Virus record (IMG/VR): IMGVR_UViG_3300045988_057080
DNA: 19,373 nt
Origin: a virus
Direction: 5' to 3' (one strand)
In this document: positions 2,910-19,373 of the stretch, piece by piece
Layout of the letters: the number at the start of each line of letters is the position of its first letter
Numbering within the stretch: the stretch's first letter is position 1
Notes under the pieces: generated by a model
Told to the model about the DNA's origin: nothing
The model's input: only the letters and a program-made list of their open reading frames with translations
Database searches by the model: none
Position numbers and translations under genes: made by a program

Positions 2910-3356
2910 ATGGAAAACAACAATACCGAACTCGTCGCGTTCAACACCGGGAGCACCGAACTCGGCACCGTCCAGCACTTCATCGATACGAGCACTCGTG
3001 AGGGTAAGATCAAGCTCTACTCGGCATTGCAGAACGCCGAAAAGCTCGACGAACACCTCAACGAGCCGTTGAACATGACGAACGCCGTCGCTCAGGCGGT
3101 GCAGGTGACCGACGACCAGACGGGCGAAATCTCCAACACCGTGCGCGTCATCATCGTGACCGATGATAACAAGGCGTACGCGGCCACCTCACCCACTCTC
3201 GCGGCGGGACTCAACACCATGTTCGGGATCTTCGGCACGCCGAACACTTGGACGGAACCGCTGTGCATCAAGGTTGTCGAACGTCGCTCCCGCCGTGGCT
3301 TCAAGTTTTTCAGCATCGAGCCGGTGGAACAGGAACCGCAGAAGAACAACAAGTGA
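2910..3356 (+). CDS. Putative ssDNA-binding protein (148 aa), first gene with the C/G-ending codon style
   Basis: AGGAAAGG RBS. The gene sits immediately upstream of the terminal protein/polymerase pair, as gene 5 does in phi29. It is acidic with a basic C-terminal patch (ERRSRRGFKFF). I recall weak similarity to phage-type SSBs of Gram-positive phages. The function is an inference. Confidence 0.45.
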   Translation: MENNNTELVAFNTGSTELGTVQHFIDTSTREGKIKLYSALQNAEKLDEHLNEPLNMTNAVAQAVQVTDDQTGEISNTVRVIIVTDDNKAYAATSPTLAAGLNTMFGIFGTPNTWTEPLCIKVVERRSRRGFKFFSIEPVEQEPQKNNK

Positions 3357-3368: not shown

Positions 3369-3388
3369 CACAATGTGAGTTCACAATT

Positions 3389-3411
3389 AGAGCACCCACT
3401 TTGGGTGCTCT
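3389..3411 (+). other. Stem-loop AGAGCACCCA-ctt-TGGGTGCTCT between the SSB and terminal-protein genes
   Basis: 9-10 bp perfect stem. It is followed by CGCCGTCTT, which is a poor U-tract. It could be a weak terminator or a 5' leader structure. Confidence 0.4.
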
Positions 3412-3435
3412 CGCCGTCTTAAAGGGGTGCGCACT

Positions 3436-4404
3436 ATGTCCCGCAGTCGCAAACAAAAGCACGTAAAGGCACGTCAGGCCGCGCAAGCACGTGCCGCCCG
3501 CAACATCAAACAGCTTGGCGCCTACTCTCATTCGAATCTCGCCAAAACCGCGGACAAACAACTCGTCAACATCGCGAAAACCTTGGGCAAGGAGTGGGAG
3601 CGGCAGAAGAAACGGGCCATAGCGGAAGCGAAGGCAACCCCATATCACGCCACCGCAGTGGAGAAGCCTACGAAAAAAGACTACATGTTCGCCCAGCGCA
3701 CGCCCATATCGGACGCGCAAATTCAGGCGGAACCCGTGGCGAAACGTCGCAAACTCTTACGTCAACAGCAGCGGAAGATCAATGCGGCGCGACGGAAAAT
3801 CAACGAATGGAACAAGGCTCAAGCCATGCCACAACGCAGCGTGTACGATCAACGTGTGGCCGAAATCACCGGAACCACCGGTGAAGGCTTCGGCCGCAAT
3901 CAGATCATTCCATCGAAGCTCACCGACTTTCTGCAAATGGCCAACGTGCTGTCAGACGAAGCGTTCGTGCGCTCCCAATTGGAGAGTGGGCGACGTAAGG
4001 AGCTGATTGGTCAGATGCATGATGCCGCCGAAATACTCGGACTGCGCACCGAACAAAAAAACAAACCGTCCAAAAAGCGGGGAACAGGCAAACAGACTAA
4101 AGAATTGTATGGTGATCATGAATGGCCGTCATACATGTCACGCGGACGTTATGAGGTGTTCGAGAAGATCCTGGCCACCACGCTCGGCTCGAAACGGCTG
4201 AAACGATTCCGCCAACTCTCGGCAGCGCAAAAACGCGCGTTCATCGAGCAGACGGACGCCCCAAGAATCGTGTTCGACTGGACGGTATATGACCCAGTTC
4301 GGCACGGTTTTACTTCGGTGTTCCGTGACAACAGCGAGGGCTACCAGCGTTCGCGACGGCAGTTCGACCGGTGGATGATGGAAGCGGGCGCGTTGGAAAA
4401 GTAG
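3436..4404 (+). CDS. Putative terminal protein (322 aa)
   Basis: It lies immediately upstream of the protein-primed PolB in a genome with ITRs. It is strongly basic (K/R-rich N-terminus MSRSRKQKHVKARQAAQARAARN). Its size is comparable to phi29 gp3. The ATG at 3436 has AAGGGG 9 nt upstream and is preferred over the GTG at 3427. The assignment rests on synteny. Confidence 0.55.
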   Translation: MSRSRKQKHVKARQAAQARAARNIKQLGAYSHSNLAKTADKQLVNIAKTLGKEWERQKKRAIAEAKATPYHATAVEKPTKKDYMFAQRTPISDAQIQAEPVAKRRKLLRQQQRKINAARRKINEWNKAQAMPQRSVYDQRVAEITGTTGEGFGRNQIIPSKLTDFLQMANVLSDEAFVRSQLESGRRKELIGQMHDAAEILGLRTEQKNKPSKKRGTGKQTKELYGDHEWPSYMSRGRYEVFEKILATTLGSKRLKRFRQLSAAQKRAFIEQTDAPRIVFDWTVYDPVRHGFTSVFRDNSEGYQRSRRQFDRWMMEAGALEK

Positions 4405-4431
4405 CGGCAGTCAATCGAAGAAAGTTGTACC

Positions 4432-5883
4432 ATGACCAGGCAAGATAAAAGAGTGGGATTGTGGTGCGCGGATAACGTCATACGCTTTACGGACGGCACC
4501 GTCCTGCGTTACGTCACCGCGCCTAACCGCCTTTTGGCGTCCATAATGACGGGCGGCAAACTCACCATCTATGTGACTGATCCCGATATTTTGGATTCGT
4601 TTATCGCGCACGTCGTACACTCCCTCCCCCATAACGAGCACAACTCCAATTTGAGTTGGGATGCGATAGTGTCAAAAAAAGGCAAGTTCTTCAACTTTAG
4701 CGTGCGTATCGACCGCGAAAATTCCGCACGCTTCTTCGATATATCGAATCTTTTGCGCGAGAATTGCCGTCTCACCATGACCGACACGCAACTACTCAAT
4801 ATTCTGCGCGAATACGATAACCGCGGTTTGTGCAAGATTACGGCGGGCGGGGCGAGTATGGAGGCGTTCGCGTCCGGCGAGTGGAAATGGTATTACGACA
4901 AATTCCCACAATTAGAATCCGAAACCAAAAAGTCATTGCATGACGCCTATGTCGGCGGTTTCATGATCGCAAGAGAAGGGGCGTATGGCAAGGCCATCGA
5001 CGTCGACTGCAATAGCATGTATCCGAGCATTTTGCGGGATGAGTGGCTTCCGTGGGGCGAACCCGAACCGTACGAAGGCGACTATGAGGAAGATAGCGAC
5101 ATGCCATTGCATTGCGACGAACTCACGTTTCGCGCGGAACTCAAACCAAACGGCCACCCTTTTCTACTCGATAATCGAAGCGTGTACGGCTTGAACCGTC
5201 TCACCTCGACACGTGGATACGTCACGCGCGTCTTGACCGACATTGACCAACAACTACTATACGAGAATTATGAGGTGAGCGTCTACAAGCATGTTAGGGG
5301 GTGGAAATTCCGCCGCTCCAAAGGTTTCTTCCGTTCGTTCGTCGATGAATGGGGGGAGTTGAAACAGCGGGCGACGGGCGAGAAACGGCAGATGGCGAAA
5401 CTGATCATGAACGCCCTGGTGGGAAAAATGGCGAGTCTGCCCAAGGGCACCGTACTACTCCCCCTCTCCAAAGACGGCATAACATTGAACTGGGATGTGG
5501 CGCAACGTGAGGAATCGAATCTGAAAACCGATTACCTCCCCGTGCCTATTTGGGTCAACGCCTACGCGCGCCGCAAGCTTATGGACGTCTGCCACGCGAA
5601 CGCCGACCGACTCTTGTACGCGAACACGGACGGGTGCATCCTGAGCGGTTGGGAGCCGGTGGAATCATGCGACATACACCCGACCGACCTTGGTAAATGG
5701 AAGATCGCCGCACGATACGAAAAATTGACGATATTGGGTATGAACCGGTATCAGGGATGGAGGGAGGACGGAGAGGTTGACGTATGCATGGCCGGAAACA
5801 TGTTCTCGCAACCCATTCCCTACGAGAAGTTTAGACATGGCGTGCAGGTCATGGATGATTACGGAACAATGGTCATGCTATAA
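4432..5883 (+). CDS. Family B DNA polymerase, protein-primed (phi29 gp2-like), 483 aa
   Basis: The motifs are DVDCNSMYPS (motif A), KLIMNALVGK (motif B), YANTDG (motif C) and NRY (KxY-like). By eye it is collinear with phi29 gp2 from LCKITAGG (phi29 LDRMTAGS) to the C-terminus, including LPWGEPEPYEG versus LPYGEPIVFEG. A TAG stop at 4402 in the same frame excludes a longer N-terminus. Confidence 0.92.
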   Translation: MTRQDKRVGLWCADNVIRFTDGTVLRYVTAPNRLLASIMTGGKLTIYVTDPDILDSFIAHVVHSLPHNEHNSNLSWDAIVSKKGKFFNFSVRIDRENSARFFDISNLLRENCRLTMTDTQLLNILREYDNRGLCKITAGGASMEAFASGEWKWYYDKFPQLESETKKSLHDAYVGGFMIAREGAYGKAIDVDCNSMYPSILRDEWLPWGEPEPYEGDYEEDSDMPLHCDELTFRAELKPNGHPFLLDNRSVYGLNRLTSTRGYVTRVLTDIDQQLLYENYEVSVYKHVRGWKFRRSKGFFRSFVDEWGELKQRATGEKRQMAKLIMNALVGKMASLPKGTVLLPLSKDGITLNWDVAQREESNLKTDYLPVPIWVNAYARRKLMDVCHANADRLLYANTDGCILSGWEPVESCDIHPTDLGKWKIAARYEKLTILGMNRYQGWREDGEVDVCMAGNMFSQPIPYEKFRHGVQVMDDYGTMVML

Positions 5884-6027
5884 TGCCTATTGTCTTCTGA
5901 GCGTCGATTTTCGACTGGGAGCAACATGGGTCGGACTGCCACGGCTGAAAACGCCGCCGACCGTGAAAATCACTATCGTGGCGGTAGTGCCCTACGATCT
6001 TCAACTCGCGCTCACATAAGACGTTTC

Positions 6028-6060
6028 GACCCCGCGTGATTGCGGGGTCATTTTATTTTT
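6028..6060 (+). terminator. Rho-independent terminator ending the early/replication transcription unit
   Basis: The structure is GACCCCGC-gtgatt-GCGGGGTC followed by ATTTTATTTTT. Confidence 0.85.
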
Positions 6061-6068
6061 CCGCCGCA

Positions 6069-6077
6069 TGATATAAT
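6069..6077 (+). promoter_or_regulatory. Candidate extended -10 promoter TGaTATAAT for the late (structural) operon
   Basis: Perfect TGnTATAAT located 9 nt after the terminator U-tract and 37 nt upstream of the scaffold ATG (RBS TAAGGAG). Confidence 0.5.
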
Positions 6078-6113
6078 TTTAGTGGAACCATTGCCAATCG
6101 TAAGGAGCTTTGC

Positions 6114-6401
6114 ATGGCGGACCCAGATAATGACGGCGAGGAAAACACCACTCCGCCGCCGACCGAAGAGGAACAGCAGACGCAAACCGTGGACGATGAA
6201 GTAAAACCGAAAGAACCCGAGCCGGAACCGGAGCCGAAGCAGGAGCCGGACGTTTCCGCACGACTCGACGCGATTGAAAAGGAACTGGCCGGACTGAAAG
6301 CCATGATGGACACGCTCGGCTACAACGACCCCGCACCGTCCGACAATGACGGCGACGGAGACAATGACAGCACCGAATCCATCGAAGATTTGTTCGACTA
6401 A
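6114..6401 (+). CDS. Putative scaffolding protein (95 aa, highly acidic)
   Basis: It lies directly upstream of the major capsid gene, as phi29 gene 7 does, and is similar in size. It has a D/E/P-rich N-terminus, a short helical segment (ARLDAIEKELAGLKAMMD) and an acidic tail. Confidence 0.6.
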   Translation: MADPDNDGEENTTPPPTEEEQQTQTVDDEVKPKEPEPEPEPKQEPDVSARLDAIEKELAGLKAMMDTLGYNDPAPSDNDGDGDNDSTESIEDLFD

Positions 6402-18987: not shown

Positions 18988-19330
18988 TTTATTTTTCCTT
19001 TCCCTTGAAGCGGATAACTACATCATAACACAAACAGGCGACACGCCGTAAAACAAAACAAGGCAAAAAAATAAAAAACAACCAACAGCCACGCAGCAAG
19101 CTACGGTTACGTTACCGTAACTTAGCCAAACATGGATCGTTGCATATACAACTATTGACACAGTGTCAATAAAAAAAACGACACGCCCGAAAATAAAAAA
19201 AATTGACAAGTGGACGTAAAAAAAATATAATAGAGGCATAAACAAAACAAAGAGACAGAACAGACACAGAACAAAAAAAAATAATACACAATAAAAAAAA
19301 AGCCACGAGGGAAAATCTTCACACAAACCC
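18988..19330. repeat. Right inverted terminal repeat (343 bp)
   Basis: Exact reverse complement of 44-386 (position p pairs with 19374-p). Confidence 0.95.
19022..19030 (-). promoter_or_regulatory. Mirror copy of the ITR extended -10 promoter, reading inward from the right end
   Basis: The reverse complement of 19022-19030 is TGTTATGAT. It lies upstream of the same SD and of the ATG at 18987. Confidence 0.4.
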
Positions 19331-19373
19331 CTGTCTCTTATACACATCTCCGAGCCCACGAGACCGATCAGTA
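19331..19373. other. Illumina Nextera/Tn5 library adapter remnant (non-biological), reverse complement of 1-43
   Basis: CTGTCTCTTATACACATCT-CCGAGCCCACGAGAC-CGATCAGT-A is the exact reverse complement of positions 1-43. Confidence 0.97.

Follow-up and report, generated by a model that had tools for sequence, protein, structure and literature searches.

A phi29-like Bifidobacterium phage polymerase that keeps a remnant of its exonuclease domain and has most likely lost proofreading

Does the replicase of a small phi29-like phage need its 3′–5′ exonuclease? The question is raised by the IMG/VR virus record IMGVR_UViG_3300045988_057080, a stretch of 19,373 bp (called the window here, at its full length) that makes up all or nearly all of a phi29-like podophage genome. 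It contains a gene for a family-B DNA polymerase (PolB) of the protein-primed type with a short N-terminal domain, in which a first-pass annotation made from the sequence alone had noticed apparently degenerate exonuclease motifs. We think it probable that this is the replicase of a Bifidobacterium podophage in which the polymerase half is intact and proofreading has most likely gone, while a shrunken remnant of the exonuclease domain is kept for a structural job. The open reading frame (ORF) and its boundaries are as follows.

4432–5883, + strand: gene for a protein-primed family-B polymerase of 483 amino acids (aa) (Pfam, match to phi29, AF2 model)
4402–4404, + strand: in-frame TAG, the stop codon of the upstream ORF, which limits how far the polymerase N-terminus can reach (read directly from the sequence)
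4432–4836, + strand: vestigial 3′–5′ exonuclease domain, aa 1–135, with no conserved catalytic residue (HHalign, profile score, dN/dS)

The 483-aa protein is a protein-primed PolB, as its score and fold show together with its catalytic residues and TPR insertions. In a phmmer search of the PDB, aa 129–439 align to residues 181–499 of phi29 polymerase (1xhx) with E = 2.4e-41, and the alignment runs continuously through the TPR1 and TPR2 insertions. The protein matches phrog_1907 over aa 123–473 (E = 7.8e-43) and Pfam DNA_pol_B_2 with 100.8 bits against a cut-off of 25.8, the Pfam match covering only aa 136–383. An AF2 model calculated from a 21-sequence alignment has a mean pLDDT of 84.1 and a pTM of 0.81, and superposes on phi29 polymerase with TM 0.83. 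The nine best PDB matches to the model found by Foldseek are all chains of phi29 polymerase (E = 3e-36 to 9e-34, TMq 0.79–0.84), with archaeal PolBs ranked far behind. The likeness to phi29 gp2 (PDB 1XHX, 2PYJ, 2EX3) extends to the protein-primed family-B fold with its palm, fingers, TPR1 and TPR2. Two usual features of the protein-primed PolB family are lacking, namely the exonuclease motifs and the tyrosine of motif B.

The first-pass annotation had held that the polymerase half aligns with phi29 gp2, that the part before LCKITAGG is only about 130 aa compared with about 190 in phi29, and that the in-frame TAG at 4402 bars a longer N-terminus. All three statements are borne out. Thr137 of LCKITAGG corresponds to phi29 Thr189, leaving an upstream part of 136 aa compared with 188. 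The TAG is separated from the ATG at 4432 by nine codons (CGG CAG TCA ATC GAA GAA AGT TGT ACC). This 27-nucleotide (nt) gap contains no ATG, GTG or TTG, and the polymerase N-terminus therefore cannot extend further; a longer or alternative N-terminus was ruled out on these grounds.

What, then, is the short N-terminal part? We compared an N-terminal profile of 22 short-form representatives of the clade to which this polymerase belongs with a profile of 98 full-length relatives having all five catalytic residues. HHalign (aa 1–112 against phi29 1–180) pairs aa 5–111 with phi29 19–129 at 96.5% probability and E = 8.9e-10, and this segment is therefore a true homolog of the exonuclease domain. 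Conservation between the remnant and canonical domains is highest in the hairpin at phi29 89–106, around the position of Arg96. We used HHalign and MAFFT L-INS-i for the remnant because hmmalign proved unreliable on these divergent N-termini; alignment by hmmalign to a phi29-numbered profile mis-scored two sequences (P0137 and P0138) in which DxE is present in the MAFFT alignment. On the placements of ExoI, ExoII and the ExoIII region, global HHalign concurs with MAFFT, the latter run with phi29 and the phages Av-1 (Actinomyces), Fairywren (Curtobacterium), LE1-1 (Eggerthella) and CH17P1 (Hungatella). These four phages are the nearest characterized or annotated relatives outside the clade, with 30–33% identity over the polymerase half, but their polymerases have 558–575 aa and the canonical DFETT, YFHNLKFDG and Yx3D. 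The recognizable elements of the remnant are listed below.

4450–4476, + strand: RVGLWCADN, equivalent of the phi29 strand that follows ExoI, CRVWAYGYM (MAFFT, HHalign)
4570–4605, + strand: degenerate ExoII (YVTDPDILDSFI), with Leu54 at the position of phi29 Asp66 (MAFFT, HHalign; column not conserved in the clade)
4732–4758, + strand: FFDISNLLR, which pairs with the IYDSLKKLP region of phi29 and holds Asn106 (HHalign, clade columns)
4771–4797, + strand: LTMTDTQLL, the deletion junction, the remainder being the C-terminal half of the ExoIII helix (alignments)

Compared with phi29 the domain has lost ExoI, the Asp of ExoII, the Lys143 motif and the Tyr of ExoIII. The ExoI strand (CDFETT in phi29) has no counterpart in the remnant in either the MAFFT or the HHalign alignment. 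The absence of D-x-E had been noted in the first-pass annotation and stands, but WCADNVI, which had been taken as ExoI, is out of register; this sequence (aa 11–17) pairs with phi29 W25–N31 and so falls on the next strand. The proposed pairing of YVTDPDILDSFI with phi29 YFHNLKFDGAFI as ExoII is reproduced by both programs. For ExoIII, LTMTDTQLL had been paired with YIKNDIQII. The Tyr is indeed absent, and that register lies within one residue of the profile alignment. A gap of ~36–50 aa, the length depending on the alignment, takes out the Lys143 motif and Tyr165 of ExoIII. Leu114 occupies the would-be Tyr165 position, and the helix of aa 118–130 is the C-terminal half of the phi29 ExoIII helix. 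On this alignment Asp118 may be a vestige of Asp169, but its column is acidic in only 50% of the clade representatives. In the profile alignment none of Asp12, Glu14, Asp66 or Tyr165 is placed, and Asp169 falls at most on the non-conserved Asp118.

The predicted structure of the domain is in keeping with these placements. The model of the isolated N-domain has a pLDDT of 77.5, and its eight best matches are phi29 polymerase, at a marginal level (E = 0.011–0.066, TMq 0.45–0.50, 7–8% identity). No exonuclease other than the phi29 domain is found among the fold matches of this model. In the alignment the first strand of the RNase-H-like fold and ~36–50 aa of its helical part have no counterpart in the remnant. 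The predicted fold fits a remodeled remnant rather than a functional DEDD fold.

The catalytic residues lost here are very well conserved elsewhere. Among 112 full-length sequences (111 relatives and phi29), Asp12, Glu14, Asp66, Tyr165 and Asp169 are each present in 101–104. Across 20 non-redundant representatives of the short clade the acidic share of a remnant column never exceeds 60%, the only invariant residue is Asn106, and Arg109 is 75% conserved. Exonucleases of the DEDD (DnaQ-like) class have four carboxylates (DxE, D and D) plus Tyr or His in three motifs, and none of these is conserved in the remnant. A profile of the canonical exonuclease domain was run with all filters off against every ORF of at least 30 aa in the six frames of the window. 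It scores the polymerase ORF at 7.1 bits (E = 0.089), and the polymerases of two members of the clade, the Bifidobacterium phages BP1 and BD811P2, at 7.6–8.1 bits. With the same profile those of Av-1, Fairywren, LE1-1 and CH17P1 reach 200–228 bits (E = 1e-60 to 1e-69). We also considered whether an exonuclease gene had been split off or moved elsewhere, and rejected this because the six-frame search matched no other ORF in the window.

Though degenerate, the domain is kept. The ratio of nonsynonymous to synonymous substitution rates (dN/dS) over the remnant (codons 1–135) comes to 0.076 in the comparison with BP1 and 0.139 in that with BD811P2; the polymerase domain (codons 136–483) has corresponding values of 0.064 and 0.068. 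The low ratio over codons 1–135 shows that the remnant is maintained by purifying selection, which fits the retained non-catalytic role suggested in the first-pass annotation. In phi29 the narrow tunnel for the downstream template, on which strand displacement depends, is formed jointly by the exonuclease domain, TPR2, palm and fingers, and Arg96 of the domain contacts the priming domain of the terminal protein (PMC4974454). By analogy, the remnant could still provide the wall of the tunnel that enforces strand displacement, contact the terminal protein, or both. We infer that selection keeps the remnant for forming the tunnel and/or docking the terminal protein.

Could the short form be an artefact of one contig, in which the gene was called too short, was misassembled or is a pseudogene? 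There is adapter sequence at the contig ends, and the GenBank annotators picked differing start codons for BP1 and BD811P2. Yet the same 483-aa ORF occurs in more than 100 independent clusters or contigs and in four sequenced isolates, it is preceded by an in-frame stop, and its first 40 codons have dN/dS of 0.18–0.23. By tblastn the polymerase has 88.8% identity to that of a human-fecal phage contig (MT836241), 87.1% to that of BP1, 75.8–77.2% to those of the B. dentium phages BD811P1–3, and 32–33% to those of the honeybee-gut Bifidobacterium phages BadAztec and BadAargau. A word-indexed search gave 175 clusters at 90% identity, and the architecture recurs in more than 170 clusters at that level. 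Among the 120 matches listed almost all have 482–484 aa and three have 464–471 aa, on contigs reaching 19.7 kb. Seeding a further search with BadAargau2 brought in forms of 464–485 aa. Divergent members of the clade, with 29–42% identity, keep the same length and domain layout, and in one of them (P0126) the genome has the gene order of the window with no helicase or exonuclease. Because the architecture is conserved across genomes an artefact is effectively refuted.

The GenBank coding sequences begin downstream of the conserved start of this ORF, by 12 codons in BP1 (4849–6264) and by 38 codons in BD811P2 (3387–4724). BD811P2 has a GTG at the position of the conserved ORF start. The dN/dS over codons 1–40 supports translation from 4432 despite these later starts, and together with the conservation suggests that the longer ORF is the real one in BP1 and BD811P2 also.

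An exhaustive search of representatives at 50% identity found 1,666 homologs. The closest ~20 clusters have 454–496 aa and align to the query without N-terminal offset; nearly all the others have 540–640 aa and an offset of about +50 residues. In a neighbor-joining tree of the polymerase domain all the short forms make up one clade nested among canonical enzymes. Its sources are phages of the human and honeybee gut, including the plaque-forming BP1, BD811P1–3 and Badaztecviruses. The reduced exonuclease domain is an architecture that the whole clade keeps under selection, and is not peculiar to this contig. BP1, BD811P1–3 and Badaztecvirus (BadAztec, BadAargau) have the same reduced form, and their records label the polymerase gene only ‘DNA polymerase’ or ‘hypothetical protein’. 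In the honeybee members the first N-terminal hairpin is absent also.

Decay of the exonuclease motifs is not confined to this clade. It is partial or complete in a number of other lineages (P0262 with P0269; P0242; P0264; P0193 with P0260; P0235; P0236 with P0221 and P0259; P0220; P0194; P0284; and P0136). Several of these polymerases have a similar deletion over ExoIII, and P0136 (7230–9173 of its contig) lies on a phi29-like contig. Exonuclease loss therefore seems recurrent among metagenomic phi29-like phages, which suggests independent losses, though the tree is crude and some of these genes may be miscalled.

Since no two-metal exonuclease site can form, the enzyme most likely lacks exonuclease activity and intrinsic proofreading. 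This is what the first-pass annotation had proposed, and each of the computational checks that it called for came out in its favor; the alignment and the exonuclease profile score of 7 bits support it at the level of sequence. Several points weigh against it. The acidic residues D14, D50, D52, D55, D103 and D118 are present, some of them conserved within the human-gut subclade, and a lineage-specific, non-canonical site built from them is formally possible. The remnant appears to have no acidic cluster in space, but this was judged from the alignments rather than by inspection in three dimensions. The retained structural role is argued purely by analogy with phi29. Lastly, about ten small early proteins have no detectable homologs, and one of them could supply an exonuclease.

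Proofreading might be retained in another way, either at a non-canonical site in the N-domain or in trans, through a small phage protein or a recruited host exonuclease. Selection constrains the remnant no less strongly than the polymerase domain, and its invariant Asn106 and 75%-conserved Arg109 show some surface to be functional. Among the early ORFs without a match in any library is one of 172 aa (2007–2525). But no set of acidic residues, histidines or other plausible catalytic residues is conserved in the remnant across the clade, and the isolated N-domain resembles only the phi29 exonuclease domain, from which it originates. No separate ORF in any frame of the window matches the DEDD exonuclease profile, or any exonuclease or helicase family; scans of its 28 ORFs with Pfam, PHROGs and NCBIfam found no other polymerase, exonuclease or helicase. 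In phi29-type replication a single polymerase molecule copies the genome from one end to the other, and no accessory exonuclease is known. We consider retained proofreading improbable, and prefer a replicase that has lost it.

The remaining feature that departs from the family is in the polymerase half, the motifs of which are as follows.

5005–5025, + strand: motif A (DCNSMYP), with catalytic Asp192 and steric-gate Tyr197 retained (invariant alignment columns)
5398–5427, + strand: motif B (KLIMNALVGK), with Val330 in place of the family-B invariant Tyr, phi29 Tyr390 (alignments)
5434–5535, + strand: TPR2-like insertion, aligned to phi29 395–430 (phmmer)
5617–5634, + strand: motif C (YANTDG), with catalytic Asp400 retained and Asn398 in place of the first Asp (alignments)

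Asp192 and Asp400 are invariant in all alignments. They are the equivalents of Asp249 and Asp458, the catalytic carboxylates of phi29 polymerase (PMC4974454). The TPR2-like insertion is predicted to form a β-hairpin at aa 340–358 (DSSP strands E340–345 and E353–358 of the AF2 model). In motif B Lys323, Asn327 and Gly331 are present but the complete Kx3NSxYG is not, and throughout the short clade the Tyr is replaced by V, I, T or A. This tyrosine has been termed invariant, and in phi29 the exonuclease-deficient polymerase is reported to discriminate ~3e5-fold at insertion, but the Y390S variant only ~3e2-fold (PMC1976434). Loss of the tyrosine goes with loss of the exonuclease. Among 155 complete homologs it is absent from 38 of the 48 with degenerate exonuclease motifs compared with 10 of the 100 with canonical ones, these being raw counts uncorrected for shared ancestry. 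Relative to phi29 two further residues are altered in the window polymerase, Asp456 to Asn (Asn398) and Lys498 to Asn (Asn438, in the KxY motif at 5743–5751). Motif C accordingly reads NTDG, in the window as in roughly half the clade; DTDS is retained in the honeybee subclade. The protein also ends ~14–17 aa earlier than its canonical relatives, with a shortened last thumb strand (the VPGGVVLVDDTFTIK region of phi29; 5854–5880 in the window). C-terminal thumb residues of phi29 polymerase are reported to help coordinate synthesis and degradation (PMC1475753). By analogy, joint loss of thumb residues and exonuclease would be coherent.

With three near-invariant residues changed (the motif-B Tyr to Val330, the first Asp of motif C to Asn398 and the KxY Lys to Asn438), one might ask whether the polymerase-like protein is impaired or repurposed, the genome being copied by host machinery. 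We regard this as very unlikely. The catalytic Asp192 and Asp400 are invariant, Lys323 and Asn327 in motif B and the motif-A Tyr197 likewise, and the dN/dS of the polymerase domain is ~0.065. Moreover, clade members with DTDS in motif C share the same architecture. The genome argues in the same direction, since the kit for protein-primed replication appears to be complete, with inverted terminal repeats, a gene in the terminal-protein position and a phi29-type SSB (a protein that binds single-stranded DNA). Nor is it evident how a linear genome bounded by inverted terminal repeats could use host replication. The elements of the kit, and the end of the early operon, are as follows.

2910–3356, + strand: phi29-type SSB (Pfam Phi29_Phage_SSB, E = 1.9e-16; phrog_6243)
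3427–4404, + strand: candidate terminal protein, 325 aa, directly 5′ of the polymerase gene (position; likeness to BadAargau2 gp17)
1–386, no strand: left inverted terminal repeat (matches the reverse-complemented right end perfectly over 386 nt; nt 1–43 adapter)
18988–19373, no strand: right inverted terminal repeat (mirror of the left end)
6028–6059, + strand: strong terminator-like hairpin (6028–6049) followed by a T-run, closing the early (replication) operon (sequence)

As in phi29, the polymerase gene adjoins those of the putative terminal protein and the SSB in a podophage genome of ~19 kb, with capsid, connector and gp16 packaging ATPase of phi29 type; Av-1 and Fairywren have the same order of SSB, terminal protein and polymerase genes. 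The window encodes a phi29-type major capsid protein, tail knob, connector, gp16 packaging ATPase, holin and CHAP endolysins. Its gene order agrees with those of BP1, BD811P2 and BadAargau2, and it is a new genome of the BP1-like group. The candidate terminal-protein ORF occupies the position of the annotated terminal-protein genes of Av-1 and Fairywren. Its product is 28% identical to BadAargau2 gp17 (E = 2e-19), which is likewise unannotated; it has no Pfam or PHROG match, and no similarity to the Av-1 terminal protein is detectable by BLASTP. In the window this ORF and that of the polymerase share a reading frame, separated by the TAG and nine codons. A terminal protein–polymerase fusion made by read-through was considered and rejected, as BP1 and BD811P2 have the two genes in different frames (derived by hand from their coordinates). 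The shared frame in the window is for the same reason a coincidence.

Both contig ends (1–43 and 19331–19373) start with TACTGATCG followed by GTCTCGTGGGCTCGGAGATGTGTATAAGAGACAG, which we take to be the read-2 transposase adapter of Illumina Nextera. At either end the outermost 43 nt are thus library sequence rather than phage DNA, and the true inverted terminal repeat is therefore ~343 bp, starting from nt 44. Whether taken as ~343 or 386 bp, the repeat is far longer than the 6 bp of phi29. Inverted terminal repeats are present in BadAargau2 and BD811P2 too. Two mirrored 113-aa GTG ORFs inside the repeats (15–356, + strand; 19018–19359, − strand) have no family matches. A non-coding gap of 230 nt (5884–6113) follows the polymerase gene, and a TATAAT-like box precedes the late genes. 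An Rfam search of the whole window gave no RNA family, pRNA included. The 172-aa ORF mentioned above is the largest unexplained early protein; it is kept in BP1 (gp18) and BD811P2 (gp04), and matches nothing in Pfam, PHROGs or NCBIfam, nor any PDB sequence. The adjacent ORF of 105 aa (2529–2846) is the counterpart of a BP1 gene labeled ‘DNA methyltransferase’, for which there is no supporting family match in the window.

Taken with the phi29 precedent, these components suggest how the genome would be copied. Most likely the candidate terminal protein serves as the primer at the inverted terminal repeats. The polymerase, in which palm, fingers, TPR1 and TPR2 are intact, would then elongate processively with strand displacement, the SSB coating the displaced strand. 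Fidelity would rest on base selection alone, which may be tolerable for a genome of 19 kb.

How unusual is such an enzyme? The first-pass annotation knew of no characterized phi29-type polymerase with this property. We have found no earlier description of exonuclease loss in phage protein-primed PolBs in the literature, for which our coverage of journals was incomplete, and to that extent the statement stands for phages. A 2024 review of phi29-like phages that names BD811P1 and BadAztec2 deals only with the exonuclease activity of phi29, and contains nothing on proofreading, truncation or a shortened polymerase. But the property belongs to a whole clade, and it has a eukaryotic precedent. The protein-primed PolB of mavirus and polinton-like viruses has a natural remnant of the exonuclease domain and is predicted to be of lower fidelity, and apart from that case the domain is described as conserved in all family-B polymerases (PMC11161782). 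It is the only natural precedent that we found. Those viruses infect eukaryotes, their polymerase is a TP–vOTU–palm fusion, and loss of the exonuclease accompanies gain of an S3H or S1H helicase. In contrast, the window polymerase starts ten codons after a stop, its terminal-protein candidate is a separate ORF, and no vOTU domain or helicase was matched anywhere in the window. The functional analog is engineered, the D12A/D66A phi29 polymerase, which polymerizes without proofreading (PMC1976434). There two point mutations lie in a complete domain, whereas the natural clade has deleted ~50 aa and is without Tyr390 as well.

The exonuclease domain has been treated as a constant of family-B replicases, and these phages provide a natural, compact exception in the cultivable BP1, BD811P1–3 and Badaztecvirus. 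It becomes possible to test how much of the phi29 exonuclease domain serves proofreading and how much is required for priming with the terminal protein and for strand displacement, and why loss of the motif-B tyrosine accompanies loss of the exonuclease. Exonuclease-deficient variants of phi29 polymerase serve in sequencing and amplification, and the clade offers smaller, naturally optimized scaffolds. We would suggest only tentatively, and with some doubt, that the whole clade copies its 17–19-kb double-stranded DNA genomes with a low-fidelity replicase, having neither proofreading nor the motif-B Tyr that shapes the pocket for the nascent base pair. The rate of mutation that a 19-kb double-stranded DNA phage can tolerate, and whether abundant gut phages differ in this, are also now testable. 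If the suggestion is true, mutation rates per genome would be far above those usual for double-stranded DNA microbes and closer to those of single-stranded DNA or RNA viruses, and low fidelity might be adaptive in an arms race with gut hosts. Recurrent decay of the exonuclease would then be a general evolutionary route for very small protein-primed genomes.

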